Shown: positions 29,764 through 44,477, counted from the first letter of the stretch. The stretch is DNA of 64,000 bases from Myxococcota bacterium (GCA_965140415.1 OZ223209.1:640001-704000), one strand, 5' to 3'. Notes: generated by a model not told the origin, from the letters alone. Translations and numbers: made by a program.

Positions 29764-31830
29764 ATGGGCACCATGGCAAATGGTCAAAAACTTCTCGATA
29801 CTTTATCCAGTCGACTGGATCAGGAAGTGTTCCGCAACCTCAATTGGGAAGGCTCGCTGGAAGATTATTTCGACATCGTTCGCCAGCAGCCGGATATTGT
29901 GCGGACCGCATTCCAGCGTATGTACGACATGATCATCTCCTACGGCTTCACGGAATACGTCGATGCCAAGAAGAAGATCACGCACTATAACTTCTTCGAT
30001 GATCCCATTGGCAAGGGGCGCGACGCCGTTTTCGGCATCGACATTCCACTGATGAAGCTGGTCAACCTGTTCCGCTCTGCCGCGCAGCAATATGGAACCG
30101 AAAAGCGTGTCATTCTGCTGCATGGTCCGGTGGGTTCCGCCAAAAGCACCATCGTGCGACTGTTGAAGCGCGGCATGGAGGCTTACTCACGCCAGAACGA
30201 AGGCGCGCTATACTCCTATGCCTGGGATATTCCAAAGGATTTCGGACCGGATGGTCTGGTTCCCTGTCCGATGCACGAAGAACCGCTGCACCTGATCCCG
30301 GAAGAGTATCGCGAGGAATTGCTGGCGGATCTGCTGCCTTCCAGCGGCAGCGACAGCAAACCCTATCGCTACAATGTAGAGGGCGGGCTGTGTCCGGTTT
30401 GTCGTTATTACTTCCACAACCTGCGCAAACGTTACGATGGCGATTGGGCCAAGATGCTGACCAAGCACATCAAGGTGCGCCGCATTTCGTTAAGCGAAAA
30501 AGACCGTGTCGGCATCGGTACTTTCCAGCCCAAGGATGAAAAGAACCAGGATTCCACCGAGTTGACGGGTGATGTCAACTACCGCAAAATCGCGGAATAC
30601 GGTTCCGATTCCGATCCGCGCGCCTTTAACTTCGATGGTGAGTTCAATATCGCCAACCGGGGTGTGATCGAGTTCATCGAGGTGTTGAAGCTCGATGTGG
30701 CCTTCCTCTACGATCTGCTGGGAGCGTCGCAGGAGCATATGATCAAACCGAAGAAATTCGCCCAGACCGATATCGATGAAGTCATCATCGGTCATACCAA
30801 TGCGCCTGAATACAAGAAGTTGCAGAACAACGAGTACATGGAGGCGCTACGCGACAGAACCGTCAAGATCGACATTCCCTACATCACGCGCATGACGCAC
30901 GAAACGAACATCTACAAGAAAGACTACGAAAAGAAGAAGATTCCCATGCACATCGCGCCGCATACCTTCGAGGTTGCCTCGATGTGGGCGGTGCTGACGC
31001 GTTTGGAGGAACCGACGCAGGGCACCATTACGATGCTACAGAAAATGAAACTGTACGACGGTCGCTCCCTGCCCGATTTCACGGAAGACACCGTAGTGGA
31101 GCTTCGTAAAAGCGGCAGCAGCGAAGGCATGCAGGGCATCAGTCCGCGTTTCATTCAGGACAAAATCAGCAACACGCTGGTGCGTTTTGCCGACGAGGGC
31201 CACATCAGCCCCTTCATGGTCATGAACGAACTGGAAGCCGGATTGCGGCACCATTCGCTGATCACCAACGAAAAGGATCGGGACCGGTACCGGGAACTGC
31301 TTTCGGTGGTCAAGAAGGAATACGAAGAGATCATTAAAAACGAAGTGCAGCGCGCCATCAGCGCCGATGAAGACGCCATCCGCAAATTGTGTTCCAACTA
31401 TGTGGACAACATCAAGGCGTACACGCTGCGGGAGAAGATCAAGAATCCTTACACCGGTCACTTCGATGAGCCGGACGAGCGCCTGATGCGTTCGATCGAG
31501 GAGAAAATCAACATTCCCGAAACGCGTAAGGATGATTTCCGGCGGGAGATCATGAACTACATCGGCGCGTTGGCTTTGGATGGCAAGCAGTTCGATTATC
31601 GCAGCAACGAGCGGCTGGATCGCGCCTTGGAAATGAAACTGTTCGAAGATCAGAAAGACGCCATCAAGCTGACCAGTCTGGTCTCCAATGTGGTGGACAA
31701 AGAGGCGCAGGAAAAGATCGATATCGTGAAAAGCCGCTTGATCAAGAACTACGGGTACAACGAGCAGTCGGCCACCGACGTGCTCAATTACGTGGCGAGC
31801 ATCTTCGCTCGCGGCGACTCGAAGGGCTGA
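29764..31830 (+). CDS. prkA: PrkA/YeaG family AAA+ protein (annotated serine kinase)
   Basis: [40 protein letters not shown]. Confidence 0.95.
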
Positions 31831-31871
31831 AAGCTGCGTCATAGATAGCGATAACCGGGAAGCGAGGAATC

Positions 31872-32987
31872 ATGGGCGTCCTGACTATTCGAGGAGATCA
31901 CGCTCGATTCAAGCAGATTGTGCGCGGTGCGATCAAGCGGGATCTGAAAAAATACGTCACCAAAGGCGAGATGATCGGTCGGCGCGGCAAGGATACCATT
32001 TCCATTCCGATTCCGCAGATCGACATCCCGCGTTTCAAATTCGGTCCGCAGGAGCAGGGCGGTGTCAGCCAGGGCGATGGCGAACCGGGCGATCCGCTGG
32101 ATAGCGGCGAAGAGGGTGAAGGTTCCGGGCAGGGTGAAGCCGGAGATCAGCCCGGCGAACACGAACTGGAAGTGGAAGTCACCTTAAAAGAACTGGCCGA
32201 GATTCTGGGCGAGGAGTTGCAGCTTCCGCGCATCGAACCGAAAGGTGCGGACAAGATCCGTTATACGGTCGACAAGTACCGGGGCATCCGCAAAACCGGT
32301 CCGGAGTCGTTGCGCCATTTTAAACGGACCTACCGCGAAGCGCTCAAGCGTCATATCTCGACCGGCATCTACAATCCCGATCGGCCCATCGTGGTGCCGG
32401 TGCGCGAAGACAAGCGCTACCGGAGCTGGAAAACCATTCCGGAGCCGCAGTACAACGCCGTCATTTTCTACATCATGGATGTTTCCGGTTCGATGGGCGA
32501 CGAGCAGAAGGAGATGGTGCGTATCGAATCCTTCTGGATCGATACCTGGCTGCAAAGCCAATACAAAGGCTTGGAAAGCCGTTACATCATTCACGACGCC
32601 ACCGCCCGCGAGGTCGACCGGGACACCTTTTTCCGTACCAAGGAATCCGGCGGCACCGTGATTTCATCCAGTTACAAACTGGCGTTGGAGATCATGGAAG
32701 AGGATTACCCGACCAGCGACTGGAACATTTACGTGTTTCAGTTTTCCGACGGCGATAACTGGTCCACCGACGATACCCAGCTTTGCATGGAACTGCTGGA
32801 AAAGAAATTGCTGCCTGCCGTTAACCTGTTTGGTTACGGCCAGGTGCGCTCCTTTTTCGGTAGCGGGCAGTATATTCTGGATTTGAAGGCGTCGATCAAG
32901 GAAACGGAAAATCTGGTGTTGAGCGAGATCCCCGATAAAGAGGCGATCTACAACTCGATCAAGGATTTTCTGGGTAAAGGAAAATAA
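31872..32987 (+). CDS. yeaH: YeaH/YhbH (DUF444) vWA-like protein
   Basis: [23 protein letters not shown]; operon context. Confidence 0.93.
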
Positions 32988-33026
32988 GCTGTCGGACTTG
33001 GCTTCGGCGGCAGGAAAGGATTTGCG

Positions 33027-34550
33027 ATGCTGACTCCGGAACTGGAAGCGATACGCACCCAGATCGAGCAAATCGCTAAAGATTACGGCCTGGACTTCTA
33101 TACCACCATTTTCGAACTGCTGGATTATCGGCAGATTTCGGAAATCGCCGCCTATGGCGGATTTCCTACGCGCTACCCGCACTGGCGCTACGGCATGGAA
33201 TACGAAAAGCTCTACAAAGGGTACATCTTCGGCGGGCAGCGGATCTACGAAATGGTGATCAACAACAACCCCTGTTATGCCTATCTGCTAAACAGCAATC
33301 CGGTATACGATCAGAAAACCGTGATGGCGCATGTGTATGGCCACTGCGATTTCTTCAAGAACAACCTGTACTTCAGTGCTACAAACCGCAAGATGATCGA
33401 CGAAATGGCCAATCATGCCGCCCGCATCCGGCGCTATATCGATCGTTTCGGCATCGAAGAGGTGGAAACCTTTCTCGACCAGGCGCTCTCCTTGGAAAAT
33501 TTGATCGATCCTCACGCTACGCATATTTCCCGCAAGGCGCGTCCTCTGACGGAAGAAGAGCAGAAGCTGGCGCAGGAAATCCCGCGCATCAAAACCAAGA
33601 AGTACATGGAAAACTATGTGAACCCGAAGGAGTATATCGAGGCGCAGCAAGAAAAGATGCGCAAGGAAAAGGAAGATAGCGAGCAGCGTTTTCCGGTGGA
33701 ACCGGTGCGCGACGTGCTTGAGTTCCTGATCGATCACGCGCCGCTCAAAGACTGGCAGCAGGATATTCTTTCCATTATCCGCGAAGAGGCCTACTACTTT
33801 GCGCCGCAATGGATGACCAAGATCATGAACGAAGGCTGGGCGGTGTACTGGCACAGCCAGATCATGACCAAGCATATGGTCGATGCCTCCGAGATCATCA
33901 GCTATGCCGATCATCACTCCGGTGTAATCGCCATGAGCAAAGGGAATTTCAATCCGTACAAGGTGGGGTTGGAGTTGTTCCTGGATATCGAGGAGCGCTG
34001 GAACAAGGGCCGCTTCGGGCGCGAGTATGCCGAATGCGACAATATGAGCGAAAAACTCAATTGGGACAAGCAACTGGGCCTGGGTAGGGAGAAAATGTTC
34101 GAGGTGCGCAAGCTCTACAACGACGTGACCTTCATCGATGAGTTTCTTACGCCGGAATTCTGCATCGAACACAAGCTGTTTACCTACGGTTACAACAAAC
34201 GACAGGAACGCTGGGAAGTCACCTCGCGGCGCTTCGAGGACATCAAGCAGATGTTGCTGACAAACCTCACCAATGGAGGAAATCCCTTCATTTACGTCAC
34301 CGACGGCAACTATCAGAATCGCGGGGAACTGTATCTGGTTCACCAGCACGAAGGGGTGGACTTGAAACTGGATTATGCGCGCGATACGTTGCGGAACCTG
34401 GAACGCGTCTGGCATCGCCCGGTGGTGATCGAAACGGTGATTCAGGAGAGTATCACGCAGATTCGCTTCGATGGGCAGAATTACTCGATTGAACAGATCG
34501 GCGAAATACCCAAAGCGGAAGAACCACATGCCAATGGAATCGGAATCTGA
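33027..34550 (+). CDS. spoVR: SpoVR/YcgB family protein
   Basis: [48 protein letters not shown]. Confidence 0.95.
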
Positions 34551-34588
34551 TGTGATTCCGGTTGGATAGAGTAATTTTGGATTTGTAG

Positions 34589-34620
34589 GATGGGCATTTA
34601 CCATGCCCATCTTTTCCTTT
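34589..34620 (+). terminator. Intrinsic terminator after spoVR
   Basis: GATGGGCAT-TTACC-ATGCCCATC followed by TTTTCCTTT. Confidence 0.8.
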
Positions 34621-34670: not shown

Positions 34671-34704
34671 ATTGATTGACAAGTCAATCAATGGCTGTTA
34701 GCTT
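34671..34704 (+). promoter_or_regulatory. Putative TetR operator overlapping the -35 of the catabolic operon promoter
   Basis: Perfect palindrome ATTGATTGAC-AA-GTCAATCAAT (34671-34692) containing TTGACA; TG-N-TAGCTT 17 bp later. Confidence 0.82.
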
Positions 34705-34745
34705 TTTTACCGGATTAAAAAATCAATCTGGAAGGATGTAGCAGC

Positions 34746-35363
34746 ATGGGTAAGCAGAACGGCCACACACCCAAAGGTGAGGCGCGTGAGGATCTGATAT
34801 TACGGGCGGCCTGTCAGGTCATCCGGGAAAAGGGCTTTCATCGCGCCCGCATGGCGGATATTGCAGACCGGGCGGAGATCAGCTATGGGTTGGCCTATCA
34901 CTATTTCGCCAATAAAGACGGCGTGTTCGACGCCATTTTCGCCCGCTGGAACGAAAGCCTGTTTGCAGAGCTTGACCGCATCGCAGAAGATGTGCACGGC
35001 ATCGAAAAGCAACTGGCCAGCTTGATCGAATACTTTCTGGATGCCTACGAACACCAGCCGGATCTGGTGCATATTTTCATTACCGAATTCAGCCGTTCAA
35101 GCCACAACCTGAATCCCGAACGCCTGACGCATTTTAAAAACTTCATCGCCCGCACAGTGAACCTGATTAAAAATGCTCAGGAAAACGGAGAGTTACGCAC
35201 GGATATCAAGGCGCATTATCTGGCCTATCTTTTTTTGGGTGGTTTGGAAACGTTCTTGTCGTCGATGGTGCTGGAAAACCAGGCCATCGATGGCGCGCGC
35301 ATGAAGCGCAACATTAAAGATGGATTACTGGATCTGTTTTTATCGGGAGCACGTCCCCGATAA
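34746..35363 (+). CDS. TetR/AcrR family transcriptional regulator
   Basis: ILRAACQVIREKGFHRARMADIADRAEISYGLAYHYFANKD. Confidence 0.93.
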   Translation: MGKQNGHTPKGEAREDLILRAACQVIREKGFHRARMADIADRAEISYGLAYHYFANKDGVFDAIFARWNESLFAELDRIAEDVHGIEKQLASLIEYFLDAYEHQPDLVHIFITEFSRSSHNLNPERLTHFKNFIARTVNLIKNAQENGELRTDIKAHYLAYLFLGGLETFLSSMVLENQAIDGARMKRNIKDGLLDLFLSGARPR

Positions 35364-35392
35364 CAGCGATTGTATAACCTGTGGAGGAAGCC

Positions 35393-36535
35393 ATGGACTT
35401 TGCATTGACCGAGGAACAACGCCTGTTTAAAGATCAGGTTGTTAAGTTCGCACGCAAGGAGATCGTGCCGCGCGTACTGGAGCACGAGCGCGCCCAGCAA
35501 TTCGACTTCGAATCCTGGCGCAAAATGGGGGAAATGGGCCTGTTGGGTCTGCATTTCCCGGAAAGCTACGGCGGTAGCGGCGCGGACGTCATGACCTGCA
35601 TTCTGGCCGGCGAGGCGCTAGGCGAGGCCGGAGTCGATGGCGGGTTGACGCTCTCTTATGGCGCGCATACCTATTTGTGCGCGGACACGATTTTCAGTCA
35701 CGGCAGCGAAGAGCAGAAACAGAAATACGTGCCAAAACTGGCCAGCGGCGAATGGATCGGCTGCATGGGGCTGACCGAGCCGGGTGCTGGCAGCGACGTG
35801 GCCGCCTTGCGCACGCGGGCGGATAAAACGGATGAAGGCTACGTGCTGAATGGCAGCAAGATCTTTATCACCAACGGTTCCATTGCGGATGTCGCCGTGA
35901 TCTACGCCAAGACCTCGCCGGAAGGCGGCCACGCAGGCATCAGCGCGTTCATCGTGGAAAAAGGCACGCCCGGTTTCAGTGTCAGCCGCAACCTGCATAA
36001 AATGGGCGTGCGTACCTCGCCAACTTCCGAACTGGCTTTCGAAGACTGCCTGATCCCGCACGAGAATCTGCTGGGTTTCGAGGGAGCCGGATTTTTAATG
36101 GCCATGCAGACGGTCGAATGGGACCGCTCGGCCTTGATCGCACCGTTTATCGGAAGCGTACAGAATGTGCTGGAAAAATGCGTGCGCTATTCGCAGGAAC
36201 GGGAGCAGTTTGGTCGGGCCATCGGGCAGTTCGACGCAGTGAAAGAGAAAATCGCCAACCTGAAGATCTTCATGGAGGCGGCGCGCACTTTGGTCTATCG
36301 CATCGCCTGGTGCAAGGATCAGGGGCGGCCCTTGAATCATCTGGAAGCGGCGGTGGCCAAGCTGTTCGTGGGTGACTGGTCGCTGGCACCGTTGAATGAC
36401 GCCGTTCTGTTGCACGGCGGCTATGGCTATACCGATGAATACGAGGTGGAGCGCGTTTTCCGCGACGGTCGCCTGGCGCCGATCGGCGGAGGCACCAGCG
36501 ATATCCAGAAACTCGTCATTTCCAAATTAATGTGA
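35393..36535 (+). CDS. Acyl-CoA dehydrogenase
   Basis: LTEPGAGSD, LNGSKIFITNG, KMGVR, HGGYGY, ERVFRD. Confidence 0.93.
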   Translation: MDFALTEEQRLFKDQVVKFARKEIVPRVLEHERAQQFDFESWRKMGEMGLLGLHFPESYGGSGADVMTCILAGEALGEAGVDGGLTLSYGAHTYLCADTIFSHGSEEQKQKYVPKLASGEWIGCMGLTEPGAGSDVAALRTRADKTDEGYVLNGSKIFITNGSIADVAVIYAKTSPEGGHAGISAFIVEKGTPGFSVSRNLHKMGVRTSPTSELAFEDCLIPHENLLGFEGAGFLMAMQTVEWDRSALIAPFIGSVQNVLEKCVRYSQEREQFGRAIGQFDAVKEKIANLKIFMEAARTLVYRIAWCKDQGRPLNHLEAAVAKLFVGDWSLAPLNDAVLLHGGYGYTDEYEVERVFRDGRLAPIGGGTSDIQKLVISKLM

Positions 36536-36545
36536 GGAGCGGGCA

Positions 36546-37643
36546 ATGAACTTCGAATGGCCCAAGCAAAGTAAAGAACGGATCGAATCCATCCGTGAAC
36601 TGTTTACCGAGGAGATGCTTTCGGCGCTGCTATTGGCGTCGCAGGCAGACGATAAAGAACTGGCGGCGCGCTGGAAAACATTGCTGCAAAAGCTGGAAAG
36701 CTGCGGATATTGGGAACTGGCGCAGCAGCAATTGAAAGAGGCGGACGTCAGTCTGTTGGCCGCGCTGGAAATCGAACTGGCCAAGCAAAACGCCGCACTG
36801 GCACTGGCTGCACAACAAACGCGCCTGTTCACGCAGGCGGCGTCTCTGCTGCCGGACTGCTATCCACCCAAACCGGGTGAGGCGCTGGTAAGTACCGTGC
36901 TGGTCGATTCGCAGTCTGCGCCAATTTTGGAGGAAAGCGGAGAAGGTTACAGCCTGTCCGGCCATGCGAGCATGGTTCCATTGGCTGCGCTGGCGGAATG
37001 GTTCGCCATCGAAGCACAGTTTAACGATAAGCCGGTGCTGGTGCTGGTCGAAGCGAGCGCTCATGGTGTTTCACGAAGCAGCGGAGTGCGCTGTAGCGGT
37101 TTGCATGCGCTGGCCTTTGCCGATGTTACCTTTGAACAAGTTGCGATCAGCCGGGAACGTTGCAGCAACCCGGACAAATCAAGCGGAGCGTTGCAGCAAC
37201 TACACGCCTTGCAGGATCTGGGATTGTGCGCAGCGGCGGCAGGCGTGATGCAGGCGGCGTTTACTGCCGCTCGCGCCAATGCGGAGAAAACCACGGAGCA
37301 GGGGCGCTCCAAGATGGCGCGTCAGCAGGTGCGCTATAAACTGGCGGAATTGTTGACTTTGAACCAGACGGCGGAGTGGATGCTGCTTCGGGCGGCGTGG
37401 CTGTTGCAAAGCGGCGATTTCGAAGCGTCAACGGTGGTGAAAAGCGCCAAAGTCTTCTGCGGGGAATCGGCCCACGAAGTCGCGCAGGCGGCGCTACAGA
37501 TCGCCGGTGTGGAAGGCTATCGCAGCGGTGCGGATTTCGAGCGTTTCGTGGCCGACAGCCGCTATCTGCTGCTGGCAGGAACGACGGCGGGTCAGGCCAA
37601 GTTGCAGATCGCCGATGATTTACTCAAGCGCTACGAGGTGTAA
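36546..37643 (+). CDS. Divergent acyl-CoA dehydrogenase-like protein (possible partner subunit)
   Basis: C-terminal ACAD helices (QQVRYKLAE, AKVFC, ALQIAGVEGY) but no TEPxxGSD motif. Confidence 0.75.
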   Translation: MNFEWPKQSKERIESIRELFTEEMLSALLLASQADDKELAARWKTLLQKLESCGYWELAQQQLKEADVSLLAALEIELAKQNAALALAAQQTRLFTQAASLLPDCYPPKPGEALVSTVLVDSQSAPILEESGEGYSLSGHASMVPLAALAEWFAIEAQFNDKPVLVLVEASAHGVSRSSGVRCSGLHALAFADVTFEQVAISRERCSNPDKSSGALQQLHALQDLGLCAAAAGVMQAAFTAARANAEKTTEQGRSKMARQQVRYKLAELLTLNQTAEWMLLRAAWLLQSGDFEASTVVKSAKVFCGESAHEVAQAALQIAGVEGYRSGADFERFVADSRYLLLAGTTAGQAKLQIADDLLKRYEV

Positions 37644-37645
37644 CG

Positions 37646-39262
37646 ATGCCGGTGTTGGATAGTCGGATCGATCCGGATAGTGCGGTATATCGTACAAATT
37701 TCGAAGCGATGGAGAAACTCGTTTCGGAATTGAATGAGGAGCTGCGCATTGCGCGGGAACAGCGTTCGGAAAAGGCGCGCAATCGAAACGCCCAGTTGGG
37801 AAAGTTGACTGTTCAGCAGCGGCTCGATCGCCTGTTGGATAAGAATACCCCCTGGCTTGAGCTGGCGCCCCTTGCCGCGCGCGGCATGTACGACGGCAAA
37901 GTGCATGGCGCTGGTGTGCGTTCTGGAATCGGCGTGGTGAGCGGACGCGAAGTGATTATCAACGCCAACGACCCGATGATCAAGGGCGGCACGATCTACC
38001 CGATGGGCGTGAAAAAGAATCTGCGTATCCAGACCATCGCCATGGAAAATCACCTGCCGATGATCAACCTGGTGGATTCGGGTGGTGCGTATCTGCCGCT
38101 GCAATCGGAAATCTTTCCCGATATCGATGACGGCGGGCGCGTGTTCTATAACCAGGCGATCATGAGCAAGCTGAACATCCCGCAGATCACCGCCGTGATG
38201 GGGCTGTGCACCGCCGGTGGAGCCTACGTCCCTGCCATGAGCGATCATGTCGTACACGTCAAGAAAACCGGTGCGATCTTTTTAGGCGGACCGCCGCTGG
38301 TATTGGCGGCCACGGGAGAAGTCGTAAGCGCGGAGGATCTGGGTGGAGCTTCCGTGCATTGTTCGGAAAGTGGGGTAAGCGATTACATCGCCGAGGACGA
38401 TGCCGACGCCATCGAGCAGTTGCGGGAGATCGTCGCCATGCTGCCGCCGGGCGAGCGGTTCAGGATTCCGATGCGCGAACCGGCAGCTCCCTTGTACGAC
38501 AGCAAGGAAATCTACGGCATCGTGCCGGAGAAGCTCAGCACACCATACGACGTACGCGAGGTCATCGCCCGCATGGTGGACGGCAGCGAGTTTCTGGAAT
38601 TCAAAGAGCTATACGGACCGACGCTGGTCTGCGGCTGGGCGCATATACACGGTTACATGGTTGGCATTCTGGGCAATAACGGCGTGCTCTTTTCAGAAAG
38701 CTCGTTAAAGGCCACGCAGTTTATTTCTTTGTGTGACCGCCAGGGCATCCCACTGATATTTTTGCAGAACATCAACGGCTATATCATCGGGCGCGAATAC
38801 GAGCGCGGCGGCATCACCAAAGACGGCCACAAGATGGTGCATGCTGTCAGCACCGCCACCGTGCCGAAATTCACCGTGATCGTTGGGGCTTCGTTCGGTG
38901 CAGGCAATTACGGCATGTGCGGGCGGGCGTATTCGCCGCGCTTTTTGTGGATGTGGCCCAACGCCAAAATCGGCGTCATGGGCGGCGAGCAGGCGGCGGA
39001 TGTGCTGGTGACGGTGAAAAACGACCAGCTCAAGCGCGAAGGTCAAGATCCATTGCCGGATGAATTCGTCCAGGCCATCAAGCAGCCTGTCGTCGAAACA
39101 GCCGATAAGGAAGGCAATGCCTATCACAGCACGGCCAACGTCTGGGACGACGGCATTATCGATCCGGCCAAGACCCGCGATGTGCTGGGCCTGGCGCTTT
39201 CGGCTTCGCTGAATAATCCCCTGCACGATCGCAAGCAGGGTCACGGCACCTTCCGCATGTAG
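37646..39262 (+). CDS. Acyl-CoA carboxylase carboxyltransferase subunit (MccB/LiuB-like)
   Basis: VDSGGAYLP, GLCTAGGAYVPAM, GASFGAGNYGMCGRAY, WDDGIIDP. Confidence 0.92.
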   Translation: MPVLDSRIDPDSAVYRTNFEAMEKLVSELNEELRIAREQRSEKARNRNAQLGKLTVQQRLDRLLDKNTPWLELAPLAARGMYDGKVHGAGVRSGIGVVSGREVIINANDPMIKGGTIYPMGVKKNLRIQTIAMENHLPMINLVDSGGAYLPLQSEIFPDIDDGGRVFYNQAIMSKLNIPQITAVMGLCTAGGAYVPAMSDHVVHVKKTGAIFLGGPPLVLAATGEVVSAEDLGGASVHCSESGVSDYIAEDDADAIEQLREIVAMLPPGERFRIPMREPAAPLYDSKEIYGIVPEKLSTPYDVREVIARMVDGSEFLEFKELYGPTLVCGWAHIHGYMVGILGNNGVLFSESSLKATQFISLCDRQGIPLIFLQNINGYIIGREYERGGITKDGHKMVHAVSTATVPKFTVIVGASFGAGNYGMCGRAYSPRFLWMWPNAKIGVMGGEQAADVLVTVKNDQLKREGQDPLPDEFVQAIKQPVVETADKEGNAYHSTANVWDDGIIDPAKTRDVLGLALSASLNNPLHDRKQGHGTFRM

Positions 39263-39272
39263 GAGCAGATCG

Positions 39273-40787
39273 ATGTTCGATTCATTACTGATCGCCAACC
39301 GGGGAGAGATCGCCGTCCGTGTGATGCGCACGGCCAAGGAAATGGGCATTCGTACCATCGCGGTATATTCGGATGCCGATAGCGACACCCCGCATGTATT
39401 GCAGGCGGATGACGCCGTGTGTATCGGTTCGGCGGAGCCCGCTCAAAGCTATTTGAATATCGAGGCCATTTTAAAGGCCGCCAAAGAAAGCGGTGCCAAG
39501 GCTATTCATCCAGGCTATGGATTCCTTTCGGAAAACCCGGAATTCGCTCGGGCGGTAGATGAGGCGGGCCTGATTTTCGTCGGCCCTGCGGCAGAGGTGA
39601 TGGCCGCACTGGGCGATAAGACCTCCGCGCGCGAACTGGCGCGTTCGCAAGGTGTGCCGGTGACTCCCGGCTTTGAAAAGCGGGATGCCAGCGCAGAAGA
39701 ACTGGAAGCGGCGGCCAAGGAAATCGGTTATCCGGTTTTGATCAAAGCGGCGGCGGGTGGTGGCGGAAAAGGAATGCGCGTGGTAAGCGATCCTGCTTTG
39801 CTTGTCGAATCGGCAAAGCAAGCGGCCAGCGAAGCCAAAAGCGCGTTTGGCGATGGCACGATCTACCTGGAAAAATACCTGGAACGTCCGCGCCACGTCG
39901 AAATTCAAATTATGGCCGATAAAAACGGCCATGCCATCCATCTGTTCGAGCGGGAATGCTCCATTCAGCGCCGTCACCAGAAAATCGTGGAGGAATCGCC
40001 CTCGCCGGTGCTGGATGCGGATTTGCGCGAACGTATGGGCCAGGCGGCGGTGGCGCTGGTAAAGGCGGCTGGCTACGTCAATGCCGGAACGGTGGAGTTT
40101 TTACTGGATGAAAACAACAACTTCTATTTTCTGGAGGTCAATACGCGCCTTCAGGTGGAGCATCCGGTCACGGAGATGATCACCGGCCTGGATCTGGTGC
40201 GGCTGCAATTGCAGATTGCAGACGGGCAGGCGCTGTCCTTGCAACAGCAGGACGTAACCTTGCGAGGGCACGCCATCGAATGCCGCCTGTATGCGGAAGA
40301 TGCGGCCAAGGGCTTTCTGCCTTCGCCGGGGAAGATCCTGTTGGCGATTGTGCCGGAAGGACCGGGGGTGCGCTTCGATCATGCCATTCGAACCGGTCTG
40401 GATGTGCCGGTTTATTACGATCCGATGCTGGGCAAGCTGATTGCCACTGCGCCGGATCGGAACAGTGCGATACAACGCATGATTCGGGCGCTTGAAGAAT
40501 GCGTGATCCTGGGTGTGGCTACGCCGGTGGAATTTCTGCTCGACGTGCTGCGCTCGCCCGCTTTCAGACAAGGCGAAACGCATACGCATTTTATCGAGCA
40601 GCATTTTTGCGAATGGACGCCGAGTGATGACGCGGATGTGGAAGCGGCAGTCGGTTATACACTTGCTCCCGCTGTTTCAAGAAGTTCCGTACAATACAAT
40701 GGTGCAGCACAGGGTATCGCGACGCCTTTCGAACGCCTGGGTAAATGGGATCTGTACGATCCGAGCGGGAAAGGAGAGCGGTCATGA
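39273..40787 (+). CDS. Biotin carboxylase subunit
   Basis: ANRGEIAVR, HPGYGFLSEN, GGGGKGMR, ERECSIQRRHQK, EVNTRLQVEH. Confidence 0.94.
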   Translation: MFDSLLIANRGEIAVRVMRTAKEMGIRTIAVYSDADSDTPHVLQADDAVCIGSAEPAQSYLNIEAILKAAKESGAKAIHPGYGFLSENPEFARAVDEAGLIFVGPAAEVMAALGDKTSARELARSQGVPVTPGFEKRDASAEELEAAAKEIGYPVLIKAAAGGGGKGMRVVSDPALLVESAKQAASEAKSAFGDGTIYLEKYLERPRHVEIQIMADKNGHAIHLFERECSIQRRHQKIVEESPSPVLDADLRERMGQAAVALVKAAGYVNAGTVEFLLDENNNFYFLEVNTRLQVEHPVTEMITGLDLVRLQLQIADGQALSLQQQDVTLRGHAIECRLYAEDAAKGFLPSPGKILLAIVPEGPGVRFDHAIRTGLDVPVYYDPMLGKLIATAPDRNSAIQRMIRALEECVILGVATPVEFLLDVLRSPAFRQGETHTHFIEQHFCEWTPSDDADVEAAVGYTLAPAVSRSSVQYNGAAQGIATPFERLGKWDLYDPSGKGERS

Positions 40788-41284
40788 CGGAAAGCATTCG
40801 CATCACAGAACGCGACTTCGAACTGGAGCAGCTTGACGGTCAGATCCGGCTTGGTGAGAACGTTTACAAGGTCGAACCCTGCCTGCAAAGTGAAAACAAG
40901 CAGGTCGTTCGAATCGACAATCGCATTGCCACGCTCTACACCGTGCGGACGGATACCGGTGTTTGGGTGTTTTCGCGGGGCAGGGCGCGCTTCGTCGAGG
41001 ATCTGTCCAAAAGTGGCAGTCGGCGAAAAAGCAAAACCGGTCAGAGCGAACAGGTAACGCCGCAGATGCCGGGCGTCGTGGTGAACGTACTGGTAAGCGT
41101 GGGTGAAGCGGTTACGAAAGGCCAGGGGCTGGTCGTGGTCAGTGCGATGAAAATGGAGGCGGTATTGGCCGCGCCGTTTAACGGCGTGGTGGAGGCTGTG
41201 AACGTCGAAGCGGGAGATAAAGTCTCGCCGGGTGAAATCCTGGTGGACGTTACCCGGGATGCGCAAGGAGGCGACGATGAGTGA
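40784..41284 (+). CDS. Biotin carboxyl carrier protein with N-terminal BT-like domain
   Basis: PQMPGVV, SAMKME biotinylation motif; ATGA overlap with the upstream gene. Confidence 0.88.
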   Translation: MTESIRITERDFELEQLDGQIRLGENVYKVEPCLQSENKQVVRIDNRIATLYTVRTDTGVWVFSRGRARFVEDLSKSGSRRKSKTGQSEQVTPQMPGVVVNVLVSVGEAVTKGQGLVVVSAMKMEAVLAAPFNGVVEAVNVEAGDKVSPGEILVDVTRDAQGGDDE

Positions 41285-42044
41285 CGAGTTGCTCTATGAA
41301 GTGAAAGGACATGCGGCCTGGATCACGTTGAATCGGCCCGAAAAACGCAACGCCATCAGCGTGGCCATGATCGAGCGCTTCAACGAATACCTGGACGCCA
41401 TCGAAGCGGACGAAAGCATTCGTGTCGTCTGCTTAACCGGCGCGGGGGATACGACGTTTTGTTCGGGTGCGGATCTGGCCGGTGCATTCGAAGGCGGCCC
41501 GCAGCAGGGCGCATTGAAATACGCAAATCTGTTATTGCGACTGAACCGTTTTTGCAAACCCTTGGTGGCGCGGCTCAACGGTCATTGTCTGGCTGGCGGC
41601 ATGGGGCTGATGCTCTCCTGCGACATCGCTTATGCAAAAGAAGGCATCTACATCGGTACGCCCGAAGTTAAGGTAGGGTTGTTCCCAATGATGATCGGAG
41701 CCCTGATTTTCAAAAACGCCATACGCAAGCAGGCGTTGGAGATGATTTACACCGCGCGGATGCTCTCGCCGTTACAGGCCGAGCGCATGGGATTGATCAC
41801 GCGCACCTACGAAGCGGAAGATTTGGACCGCGAAGTGGAAGAAACGCTGGCGGATATAGCCAAGAATGCGCCTTTGGCGATTCAGGCGGGACGGCAGGCG
41901 CTGGCTGCGGCGGAAGAAATGGACTTGGAAAATGCCTTTCCTTTTCTGGCGGATGAACTGGGAAAAATCTTTCAAAGCGAAGACGCCGCCGAGGGACTTT
42001 CCGCCTTTTTCCAGAAACGCGAACCGGTTTGGAAGAACCGATAA
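41277..42044 (+). CDS. Enoyl-CoA hydratase/isomerase family protein
   Basis: ITLNRPEKRNA, FCSGADL, AGGMGL, PEVKVGL. Confidence 0.92.
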   Translation: MSDELLYEVKGHAAWITLNRPEKRNAISVAMIERFNEYLDAIEADESIRVVCLTGAGDTTFCSGADLAGAFEGGPQQGALKYANLLLRLNRFCKPLVARLNGHCLAGGMGLMLSCDIAYAKEGIYIGTPEVKVGLFPMMIGALIFKNAIRKQALEMIYTARMLSPLQAERMGLITRTYEAEDLDREVEETLADIAKNAPLAIQAGRQALAAAEEMDLENAFPFLADELGKIFQSEDAAEGLSAFFQKREPVWKNR

Positions 42045-42071
42045 TCGAACTCATACAAAAGGAAGCCTGCT

Positions 42072-42956
42072 ATGTCGATGTGGATCAAAGACAATCAGAA
42101 TTACGAACGCCCCTGCATGATTACCTGCGCGCTTTCCGGCGTGGTGGCCAATCGCCAACAGTGCCCGGCGATTCCTTATACTCCCGAAGAATACGCCGCC
42201 GAAGCCAAGCGCGCCTATGAAGCAGGTGCGGCGGTGGTGCACATTCATGCCCGCACGCCCGACGGCAAACCCAGTTACGACGTGCAGGACTATCGCAACA
42301 TTCACGACGCCATCGTCGATGCCTGTCCCATCATCACCAATTTCTCGACCGGTGCGGTCGGCATCACAACCGATATGAAAGTCAACCCGATCAAGGAAGT
42401 CAAACCCGCCATTGGCGCATTGAACATGGGTTCGATGAACTACGCCAAGTATCATCCCAAGCGTAAGGACTTCGTCTTCGAGTTCGTTTTTCCCAATCCC
42501 TTTTCGGAAATCAAGGCGATCGTCGAAGCCATGAACGGGGTAGACGTCAAACCCGAGATGGAATGCTTCGACATGGGGCATATCGGCAACAGTTACCCGC
42601 TGATCGACATGGGTTTATTGAAGCCGCCGTACCAGTACAGCCTGATCATGGGTGTACTCGGCGGCATTGCGCCCACGGTGCCGAATCTGGTGCGTATGGT
42701 GGAGATGCTGCCGCCACAGAGCGACTGGGAACTGATCGGCATCAGCCACGATCAGTGGCGACTGGTAGCCGCCGCCATCAGCCTGGGCGGCAACGTGCGC
42801 GTGGGACTGGAGGACAACTTCTATCTTTCCGCCGGCGAAATGGCAGAGAGCAACGGCGATCTGGTCGCCAAGGCCGCACGCATGGTGCGCGATCAGGGGC
42901 GCGAAGTGGCCACGGTCGAGCAGTGCCGGGAGCGCCTGGGACTGCAACATCGCTGA
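42072..42956 (+). CDS. Beta-keto acid cleavage enzyme (BKACE/DUF849, Kce family)
   Basis: IPYTPEE, AGAAVVHIHAR, STGA, RVGLEDN. Confidence 0.92.
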   Translation: MSMWIKDNQNYERPCMITCALSGVVANRQQCPAIPYTPEEYAAEAKRAYEAGAAVVHIHARTPDGKPSYDVQDYRNIHDAIVDACPIITNFSTGAVGITTDMKVNPIKEVKPAIGALNMGSMNYAKYHPKRKDFVFEFVFPNPFSEIKAIVEAMNGVDVKPEMECFDMGHIGNSYPLIDMGLLKPPYQYSLIMGVLGGIAPTVPNLVRMVEMLPPQSDWELIGISHDQWRLVAAAISLGGNVRVGLEDNFYLSAGEMAESNGDLVAKAARMVRDQGREVATVEQCRERLGLQHR

Positions 42957-43123: not shown

Positions 43124-43217
43124 ACGATCTTCGATCGCGTAAGACTATGGCACACATTATTCAAATTAATGGCTAAAAATGATTGAGAACCGCTATACAA
43201 GCGCTTCGGGGTCGGAT

Positions 43218-44477
43218 ATGTCCGAAAAGGTTTCCTCAAGCCGCGTGGCGGTGCTGCTGTTTTTCCTGCTGTTGATCGCCGCTCCGGCGCTGTGGCTGGG
43301 TCTGTCTCAGCCGCCCGATCTGGATGAACCGGCCTTTCACCTGCCCGCCATCCAGCAGTACATCGACCAGTTTCCGGCATTCGATCTGCAACACTATCAC
43401 AGCGCCTCCGGTCCCGTGCCTTACATGCTGTGGTCCGTATGGGGGCAGCTTTTCGGCGACAGCCTCCCCGCATTGCGACTGCTTTCCTTGTTGCTTGGTC
43501 TGGGTTGCGTAGTCATTCTATGGCGCGTATTGCGGGACGAACCGACCGGAAGGACCGCGCTGCTACTGGGGTTGATCGTATTGCAACCCTATTTTCTGTA
43601 TCGCTGCTACACCATTTACACCATGATTCCGGCGCTGGTTACGGCCTTACTGGCGCTGGCGTTCTATCTTCGTTTCGAACGGAAGAAGGAATATTCCAGC
43701 CTGCTTGTATTTGCGCTGTTCGCGTCACTGGCCGTATGCAGCCGCCAGGTCTATCTTTCCTATGTGGCCGGAGTGCTGGCGCATTTCACCTTGTTTCACC
43801 TGCTGCCGTCCTGGCGCAAGGACCGTGGCCGCAGTCTAGCCCAGGGCGCGCTACTAATGCTGCCGGTGTTTGCGCTACTGGGACTGTTCTGGTTGTGGGG
43901 TGGCAGCAATCCACCTGATTTTCGCGAAAACGCCGTGCGCGGAATCAATTGGCGCATGCTGGATTTCGTGCCGCTCTTTTTGGGATTCTGGTTTCTGCCG
44001 GTGGCCTGGACGCTTGCCCGGCGCGTGTCGCCGGTGTTATGGCTCCTTGCTGCCGTGGCGTCACTGCATCTGATTTTCTGGCCCTATATCGCCGATCCGG
44101 TGGGCATCGAGGCGGGAAACGTTTCCGGTGTGATCGCCAAGCTGTTTCTGAAAGCGGCCAGCAAGGGACTGCCACTGTGGCTATTGGGACTGGCCCAGGC
44201 GGCGTTGTGGTCCGCCGGAGTCATTGTTTTGGCGGCTCTGTTGTACCGGCTGAAGCATGTCGGCAGTTGGATCGCGTTTGCCCATTTCGGCTTATTGGCC
44301 TTTATCCCGCATACCTGGGAACGCTTTTTCCTGCCGGTGATTCCGATTTTGTGGCTGAGCCTGCGTGACACCGTGAAAGCAAGGCCGATCTTTTTGCTGT
44401 GGCTGGTCTTTCAGGCACTGCTTACCGCCATGTATGTTGCGCAAAAAAGCGGCGTATTCGGCGGTGCATCCTTTTAA
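43218..44477 (+). CDS. Polytopic membrane protein, GT-C-fold glycosyltransferase-like
   Basis: DE in first loop (PDLDEPAFHLP), LRLLS, RQ motif, many TM helices; start may be 43179. Confidence 0.65.
   Translation: MSEKVSSSRVAVLLFFLLLIAAPALWLGLSQPPDLDEPAFHLPAIQQYIDQFPAFDLQHYHSASGPVPYMLWSVWGQLFGDSLPALRLLSLLLGLGCVVILWRVLRDEPTGRTALLLGLIVLQPYFLYRCYTIYTMIPALVTALLALAFYLRFERKKEYSSLLVFALFASLAVCSRQVYLSYVAGVLAHFTLFHLLPSWRKDRGRSLAQGALLMLPVFALLGLFWLWGGSNPPDFRENAVRGINWRMLDFVPLFLGFWFLPVAWTLARRVSPVLWLLAAVASLHLIFWPYIADPVGIEAGNVSGVIAKLFLKAASKGLPLWLLGLAQAALWSAGVIVLAALLYRLKHVGSWIAFAHFGLLAFIPHTWERFFLPVIPILWLSLRDTVKARPIFLLWLVFQALLTAMYVAQKSGVFGGASF

Follow-up and report, generated by a model that had tools for sequence, protein, structure and literature searches.

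How could a bacterium carry an acyl chain past a β-methyl branch if its carboxylation operon ends in something other than the usual lyase? β-Methyl branches block β-oxidation, and the sole bacterial carboxylation route past them that is described to our knowledge (Liu/Atu) ends in an enzyme of the 3-hydroxy-3-methylglutaryl-CoA (HMG-CoA) lyase type. The question is raised by an operon at positions 34671 to 42956 (about 34.7 to 43.0 kb) of a 64,000-nucleotide stretch, here called the window, of a Myxococcota genome (GCA_965140415.1, OZ223209.1:640001-704000; C1:640001-704000 in our coordinates). The genome is a single contig of 5.98 Mb with a completeness of 93.7%. An earlier note on the window had described genes for a TetR regulator, two acyl-CoA dehydrogenases (ACADs), a carboxyltransferase (CT), a biotin carboxylase (BC), a biotin carboxyl carrier protein (BCCP), an enoyl-CoA hydratase (ECH), and a cleavage enzyme for β-keto acids (BKACE) and had read them as a route for a β-branched acyl-CoA with BKACE as the terminal enzyme. 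ORF coordinates and Pfam matches place all eight genes where the note had put them, tightly packed on the plus strand (Table 1), and as far as sequence can carry it, the interpretation is supported as well. We find BKACE tied to this pathway across many lineages, and the carboxylase that accompanies it always lacks the phenylalanine that restricts 3-methylcrotonyl-CoA carboxylase (MCC) to the intermediate of leucine degradation. On balance, we favor a route that resembles Atu and Liu but acts on 3-methyl-branched acyl-CoAs above the size of isovaleryl-CoA; BKACE would yield acetoacetate and a shortened acyl-CoA.

The carboxylase is one point at which the operon differs from canonical liu clusters. 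According to the available text of PMC4673880 (Jurado et al.), Phe191 of the MCC β subunit occupies the space in which geranyl-CoA carboxylase (GCC), with Gly162 as the corresponding residue, accommodates the geranyl group, and a three-residue insertion in MCC directly precedes Phe191; the F191G variant of MCC gains activity with geranyl-CoA and is essentially inactive on 3-methylcrotonyl-CoA. The window CT is most similar to AccD1 of Mycobacterium tuberculosis (bit score, 651), the MCC β subunit of Pseudomonas aeruginosa (648), and human MCCB (637), compared with 470 bits to the GCC β subunit (5ikl) and 171 bits to the α subunit of glutaconyl-CoA decarboxylase. These scores place it in the γ-carboxylating MCC/GCC lineage. 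In an alignment to full-length human MCCB, residue 191 is the Phe of D-H-F-G-R, and the five best PDB chains all read [ED]-H-F-G-R. The window CT reads D-D-G-G-R there (FPDIDDGGR, versus [RK][ED]HFGR in MCCs), so that Gly163 stands at the place of Phe191 without a gap. The Phe191 found in the aligned MCC-type chains of human, P. aeruginosa, and M. tuberculosis is thus missing from the window CT, and the MCC insertion before the selectivity position, which is a three-residue gap in other BKACE-linked CT lineages, is retained. Compared with the GCC subunit AtuC, it has the Gly but also the insertion, and its score to GCC is 470 bits versus 648 to 651 bits to the MCCs. Judged by these residues, with the insertion kept and the Phe lost, the carboxylase is not a canonical MCC. 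The CT lineage termed "del-GG" was considered as a set of true GCC orthologues, which its scores do not support (553 and 543 bits to MCC-type chains versus 506 to GCC).

The state of this residue follows the genomic neighbor of the CT gene. From a sample of 301 genomes of the phylum, CT loci were chosen by coordinates beside a match to HMG-CoA lyase (HMGL) or BKACE before their motifs were known, and 89 distinct CTs were kept after identical sequences and alignments of fewer than 400 residues had been dropped. All 20 HMGL-adjacent CTs have Phe at position 163, and none of the 57 BKACE-adjacent CTs does: 49 have Gly, and 8 have Ser, Ala, His, Thr, or Tyr. Seven of these eight belong to a distant lineage (32 to 35% identity) in which the alignment column is uncertain; the eighth has Ala (L066, 41% identity). 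Among the 12 CTs with neither neighbor, there are 9 with Gly, 2 with Phe, and 1 with Tyr. In a FastTree phylogeny rooted on the genome's other carboxyltransferase, which resembles that of propionyl-CoA carboxylase (PCC), the Phe-type, HMGL-linked CTs form one clade (support, 0.997), and the BKACE-linked CTs fall into at least five groups: D-D-G-G, E-H-G-G, N-R-G-G, the three-residue-gap group, and the distant lineage. Canonical liu clusters of Myxococcota run CT-ECH-BC-HMGL; the others run (ACAD)-CT-BC-(BCCP)-ECH-BKACE or BKACE-CT-BC, so that HMGL and BKACE occupy equivalent end positions. CTs of the distant lineage stand directly beside ECH-BKACE pairs whose BKACE is 50 to 59% identical to that of the window (L012, L054, L084, L086, L087, L088, and L091); in most of these stretches no BC gene was seen, and one of the loci lies in a metagenome-assembled genome (MAG) labeled Solirubrobacterales.

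The BKACE gene is conserved with the cluster, which answers a doubt that the earlier note had raised against itself. We fetched 44 loci by BKACE similarity (58 to 82% identity), which come from MAGs labeled Myxococcota, Deltaproteobacteria, and similar, and counted those with enough upstream DNA. The gene directly upstream of BKACE encodes an ECH in 34 of 39 loci, and upstream genes further include a BCCP (29/36), a BC (28/34), a CT of at least 60% identity (26/32), an ACAD (21/29), the degenerate ACAD (18/29), and a TetR regulator (10/27). An HMGL gene was seen in none of the 44. The order ACAD-ACAD'-CT-BC-BCCP-ECH-BKACE recurs in six further genomes (G001, G004, G012, G063, G215, and G148); exceptions are L014 and L056, which have insertions or lack the ECH, and L053, L054, and L055, which hold a partial set. 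In some relatives (L022, L030, and L032) the region 3' of BKACE encodes another ACAD as well as an ABC importer of the Liv type, within whose genes an AMP-binding acyl-CoA ligase is embedded, and in another a MaoC-SCP2 fusion follows BKACE (L015, 10893 to 11705). Such neighbors fit uptake and activation of a hydrophobic acid.

Co-occurrence across genomes points the same way. HMGL is above cut-off in 208 of the 301 genomes, and a BKACE match at E ≤ 1e-40 is found in 201. A BKACE at least 69% identical to that of the window occurs in 12 genomes of six families (G000, the genome analyzed here, with G001, G002, G004, G006, G009, G012, G043, G063, G148, G215, and G223), and 11 of these 12 have no HMGL match at E ≤ 1e-60. 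In many other genomes, such as G017 and G038, a Gly-type CT-BKACE cluster occurs in addition to, and apart from, a canonical MCC-HMGL cluster.

The absence of an HMGL gene that had been claimed for the window extends to the whole genome. The HMG-CoA lyase model NF004283 has no match at E ≤ 0.001 in the genome, and PF00682 gives just two, at 22 and 21 bits, both weak and well away from the window; 14 of 14 control genomes were above cut-off. An HMGL-type lyase encoded elsewhere in the genome, which the earlier note had allowed for, was thus found with neither model. With the liu-cluster ECH of G017 as the query, the genome gave no match at E ≤ 1e-20. Measured against the liu operon set, the lyase is missing and the CT is not of the Phe type. 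The genome's one HpcH/CitE-like protein, of 421 amino acids with HpcH/HpaI, malate-synthase-like, and DUF6986 signals, is encoded at G000:C1:3247893-3249155 (L058, 1195 to 2460), unlinked to the cluster. Its relatives were found in 2 of 40 relatives searched (G004 and G008, the latter without the cluster) and were not found in the cluster carriers G001, G002, G006, G009, and G012; it is thus improbable as the missing lyase, and we rejected it as the partner of the cluster.

The genome contains two BKACE genes. The BKACE of the operon matches PF05853 (bit score, 309.9; cut-off, 24.8) over model positions 1 to 274 of 274. It reads S22-G-V-V-A26, H57-I-H59, and G245-L-E-D248, in agreement with the earlier note's zinc ligands (HxH and GLED) and its SGVVA loop without an acidic residue. 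All 90 BKACEs aligned from the loci share H57, H59, E164, R243, E247, and D248, which align to H46, H48, E143, R226, E230, and D231 of Kce, the enzyme of lysine fermentation; this set covers the zinc ligands and the catalytic Glu and Arg. Kce Glu14 is presumably the acidic loop residue that binds the substrate amine; the equivalent loop of the window enzyme, C-A-L-S-G-V-V-A-N, is hydrophobic and has Val at this place. All four NCBIfam equivalog models for BKACEs remain under their cut-offs. The best is NF052387, for 3-keto-5-aminohexanoate cleavage enzyme, with 258 bits versus 382, and with Val at Glu14 the protein does not have the features of that enzyme. Among structures, it scores 187 bits to 3LOT and 156 bits to Kce. 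In the group-to-substrate table given in PMC4922564, BKACEs acting on hydrophobic substrates form group G1, and the hydrophobic loop fits G1-like enzymes. BKACE15, as described in the available text of PMC11961710, was crystallized in complex with both acetoacetate and acetyl-CoA, which occupy one single-channel site, and E171 is its catalytic base. In our comparison, E171 and R254 of BKACE15 stand for the catalytic Glu and Arg. The second BKACE of the genome (G000:C1:136380-137186; L001) is 35% identical to that of the window and lies near neither carboxyltransferase.

The first ACAD fits a branched substrate. The G-x-G-T arrangement of isovaleryl-CoA dehydrogenase (IVD) would make room for a branch at C-3. 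The first ACAD has the C-terminal motif I-G-G-G-T-S, compared with I-G-A-G-T-S in the IVDs 4kto and 4o5m, and lacks the Y-E of the butyryl-CoA dehydrogenases 4l1f, 5ol2, and 5lnx (I-Y-E-G-T). The second ACAD is degenerate: it has L-A-G-T-T at the place of the catalytic Glu, with Ala where medium-chain acyl-CoA dehydrogenase has Glu, and it is 26 to 39% identical among relatives, versus 66 to 80% for the first. The two genes adjoin, and the pair is kept in 18 of 29 loci with enough upstream DNA; the two proteins may form a heteromer of the α-β type. In the ECH, Glu144 and Glu169 are, we assume, the two catalytic glutamates of hydratases. Glu144 is present, and position 169 is Glu or Asp, in 44 of 45 ECHs that adjoin a BKACE of at least 64% identity. 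We also considered the ECH as an obvious hydratase-lyase and found no support: its two acidic positions match those of hydratases, and its score with the HCHL model is 138 bits versus a cut-off of 276, although it may still have lyase activity. BC and BCCP were considered as one frameshifted gene; this was rejected, since all 9 relatives examined have stop codons between the two, in varying frames.

From these features we infer BKACE as the final C-C cleaving enzyme, together with the kind of substrate. The operon would be repressed by TetR and would serve to remove a β-methyl branch from substrates such as short isoprenoid acids or 3-methyl fatty acids. Dehydrogenation to a 3-methyl-2-enoyl-CoA would be the task of the IVD-type ACAD, which probably acts in a heteromer with its degenerate paralogue. 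The carboxylase, with split BC and BCCP and a wide-pocket β subunit (Gly163), would carboxylate the γ-methyl group to 3-alkylglutaconyl-CoA, which the crotonase would hydrate to 3-hydroxy-3-alkylglutaryl-CoA. A retro-aldol cut on the CoA side, with the regiochemistry of HMG-CoA lyase, would then release acetyl-CoA and a free β-keto acid, R-CO-CH2-COO-, exactly the two substrates of BKACE, which would convert them to R-CO-SCoA and acetoacetate. Overall, the chain would be shortened beyond the methyl branch and acetoacetate would be released; the latter could be activated by a CoA-transferase A/B pair encoded elsewhere in the genome. Without BKACE, a free keto acid with R larger than methyl would have no way onward, which would explain BKACE alongside wide-pocket carboxylases. 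With leucine, where R is methyl, BKACE would catalyze a null exchange, and HMGL is enough by itself.

BKACE would either perform the last step alone, after a separate lyase activity, or perform the retro-aldol cut as well, in one active site. In genomes with HMGL, that enzyme could make the cut; here the candidates are BKACE and an unrecognized enzyme. A bifunctional BKACE, joining the retro-aldol cut and the Claisen-type acyl transfer of 3-hydroxy-3-alkylglutaryl-CoA in one zinc site as a common Myxococcota solution, is a tentative idea that we would not bet on. If it is true, it would be a lyase-free, thiolase-free step over the β-methyl branches of isoprenoid-derived and other 3-methyl-branched acids, with HMG-CoA lyase reserved for the Phe-type leucine enzyme.

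Several points weigh against the route for larger branched acyl-CoAs. No protein of the orthogroup has a known enzyme activity, and the step that gives the free β-keto acid has no assigned enzyme in the genome. The CT is nearer to MCCs (648 to 651 bits) than to GCC (470 bits) and retains the MCC insertion, so that its pocket may be just modestly enlarged. The genome has two carboxyltransferases in all, that of the operon and the PCC-like one; as the sole member of the MCC lineage, the operon CT may also have to serve leucine breakdown. The genomes surveyed are related, and the contrast of 20/20 to 0/57 therefore overstates the number of independent events. One CT with Phe (L137) sits in the D-D-G-G clade with weak support and has no adjacent BKACE or HMGL. 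In G006 and G009 the BKACE (80 to 81% identical; L016 and L018, respectively) lies among unrelated genes, and ACAD-ACAD'-CT-BC is located elsewhere in the genome, apart from BKACE, ECH, and BCCP. One of the 12 genomes counted above, G002 (6% contamination), has both enzymes, with HMGL on another contig beside a second CT, and four genomes of one family (G156, G286, G216, and G241) have a BKACE of 64 to 68% identity away from their CT, with HMGL present in the same genomes.

The strongest of the rival explanations, which we nevertheless regard as unlikely, is ordinary leucine or isovalerate catabolism, with a working MCC, a crotonase that yields HMG-CoA, and BKACE as a nonhomologous HMG-CoA lyase releasing acetoacetate and acetyl-CoA. 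It would account for the operon CT as the only one of the MCC lineage in a genome without an HMGL-type match, for the IVD-type ACAD, and for a CT whose identity to the canonical CTs linked to HMGL is 56 to 60% and whose best scores are to true MCCs. Almost no PF00682 domain was found, so that LeuA is probably lacking and leucine would have to be taken up; with no enzyme of the LeuA/CimA type seen, the organism may be auxotrophic for leucine. The genome also encodes a fused E1 2-oxoacid dehydrogenase. A precedent for a nonhomologous lyase reportedly exists in the leucine cluster of M. tuberculosis, where the CitE-like β-hydroxyacyl-CoA lyase Rv2498c replaces HMGL in an MCC cluster. Against this, Gly163 replaces the very Phe whose loss leaves MCC essentially inactive on 3-methylcrotonyl-CoA, and because the canonical BKACE reaction is a null exchange when R is methyl, new lyase chemistry would be needed. 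The many genomes that hold both an MCC-HMGL and a Gly-type CT-BKACE cluster also argue for different substrate ranges.

It is less probable still that leucine carbon is channeled as HMG-CoA into the mevalonate route and that BKACE is merely a coregulated neighbor acting on an unrelated β-keto acid. Genes for HMG-CoA reductase and HMG-CoA synthase do lie side by side at 5.644 to 5.647 Mb (G000:C1:5644277-5646756), a sign of a mevalonate route; G006 and G009 each have a BKACE on its own, and BKACEs at the threshold used above are very common in the phylum. The presence of BKACE beside ECH and CT in at least five CT lineages and several gene orders is, however, hard to explain without a shared pathway. 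HMGL is lacking from all 44 loci, and the Gly163 pocket argues against 3-methylcrotonyl-CoA as the substrate.

An unbranched C4/C5 route, from crotonyl-CoA through glutaconyl-CoA and 3-hydroxyglutaryl-CoA to acetyl-CoA and malonate semialdehyde, then BKACE, could draw on the relation of the MCC/GCC lineage to glutaconyl-CoA decarboxylase α (171 bits) and on BKACE15, which takes malonate semialdehyde with acetyl-CoA (PMC11961710, available text), but is highly improbable given an ACAD of the type usual for 3-branched substrates, a hydrophobic CT pocket that is widened rather than narrowed, a hydrophobic BKACE substrate loop, and nothing else in the cluster that would use formyl-CoA.

The route past a β-methyl branch that ends in BKACE remains the reading we favor, and the tight packing of the genes fits it (Table 1). 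The intergenic gaps are, in order, 17, 10, 2, 10, and 27 nucleotides, and the remaining ORF junctions overlap. Coordinates and translations suggest, as the more likely start of the BCCP, an ATG at 40784 that overlaps the stop codon of BC; the ECH more likely starts near 41277. For the ACADs, CT, ECH, and BKACE, no NCBIfam equivalog model reaches its cut-off. The regulator has its best NCBIfam match to FadR, the Bacillus-type fatty-acid regulator, with 68 bits, under the cut-off of 200. The palindrome that precedes it is the sole such site in the 5.98-Mb genome at up to three mismatches and, with 0 to 3 mismatches, is found again in all 12 relatives checked, where it lies 40 to 110 bp upstream of the gene for TetR; it is the probable TetR operator.

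Table 1. Genes of the operon and the palindrome preceding it, in window coordinates
Feature	Position	Strand	Evidence
Palindrome, probable TetR operator	34672-34691	.	20-bp perfect palindrome, 55 bp before TetR start
TetR-family regulator	34746-35363	+	TetR_N, 55 bits
ACAD, catalytic subunit, IVD-type C terminus	35381-36535	+	All three ACAD domains (Pfam)
Degenerate ACAD paralogue, probable noncatalytic partner subunit	36546-37643	+	C-terminal domain alone (Acyl-CoA_dh_1) above cut-off, 66 bits
Carboxyltransferase (CT, β subunit), MCC/GCC lineage	37646-39262	+	Carboxyl_trans, 481 bits
Biotin carboxylase (BC; α subunit, N-terminal part)	39273-40787	+	Biotin_carb_N, CPSase_L_D2, Biotin_carb_C; NF006367, 646 bits, over cut-off
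BCCP (α subunit, C-terminal part)	40745-41284	+	Biotin_lipoyl, 59 bits, residues 107-168; A-M-K-M biotinylation motif
Crotonase-fold enoyl-CoA hydratase (ECH)	41232-42044	+	ECH_1, 172 bits
BKACE	42072-42956	+	PF05853, 310 bits, full model

Upstream of the operon lies a SpoVR gene (Pfam) in the stretch from 29764 to 34550 of the window, followed by a terminator-like hairpin at 34587 to 34613; the two ORFs that precede SpoVR are, judging by their size, presumably PrkA and YeaH-like. G099 likewise has SpoVR/YeaH-like genes at a distance of about 3 kb from an ECH-BKACE pair (54% identity; L085, 9286 to 11954). The gene after the operon (window 43179 to 44477) encodes a PMT_2-type glycosyltransferase-like membrane protein (35 bits) and does not occur in the cluster of the relatives.

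Our literature search found no paper linking BKACE with an MCC- or GCC-type pathway; the one paper with both terms concerns synthetic CO2 fixation. In the available text of the NetSyn preprint, cluster 22 of the G1 contexts is described as one "that remains to be discovered"; it may or may not be the present cassette. If the proposed chemistry is true, it would provide a physiological role for a large hydrophobic-substrate branch of the BKACE family, an annotation rule that pairs Phe with HMGL and Gly with BKACE in MCC-like carboxylases, to which the name methylcrotonyl-CoA carboxylase is now given routinely, and a candidate route by which isoprenoid and branched fatty acids could be turned over anaerobically in sediments and groundwater. 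The wide-pocket γ-carboxylase and BKACE could also serve as parts for pathway engineering, a use to which BKACEs have already been put (PMC11961710, available text).

Compared with the Liu pathway, the operon has the same order of chemistry (dehydrogenation, carboxylation of the γ-methyl group, hydration, and cleavage), a terminal gene for a C-C cleaving enzyme, and an IVD-type ACAD, and its CT is 54 to 60% identical to the CT of canonical Myxococcota clusters (CT-ECH-BC-HMGL; L071, L100, L107, and L119). It differs in having a terminal BKACE instead of an HMGL-type lyase, Gly163 instead of Phe191, separate BC and BCCP genes, and the extra degenerate ACAD, and its ECH is just 28 to 32% identical to the liu-cluster ECH. 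With the Atu pathway of Pseudomonas (AtuC/AtuF and AtuE) it shares a carboxylase of the same lineage, the same logic of branch removal, and Gly at the selectivity position, which implies a larger 3-methyl-2-enoyl-CoA substrate. In contrast to Atu, the window CT keeps the MCC insertion and is nearer to MCC (648 versus 470 bits), and the cleavage gene encodes a BKACE; no equivalents of AtuA, AtuB, AtuG, or AtuH turned up in the cluster, although no search was aimed at them. The terminal enzyme resembles characterized members of its family (Kce, PDB 2Y7F; Paracoccus BKACE15, PDB 8RIO, 8RIP, and 9HNF) in its full-length PF05853 match, its zinc ligands, and its catalytic Glu and Arg, and it differs from them in a loop with Val-Val where Kce has Ala-Glu14 and in its context within a biotin carboxylase operon, of which the papers searched gave no description. 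The M. tuberculosis cluster with Rv2498c is reportedly similar in that an unrelated fold replaces HMG-CoA lyase; in the operon described here, the replacement would be a zinc-dependent TIM-barrel BKACE.

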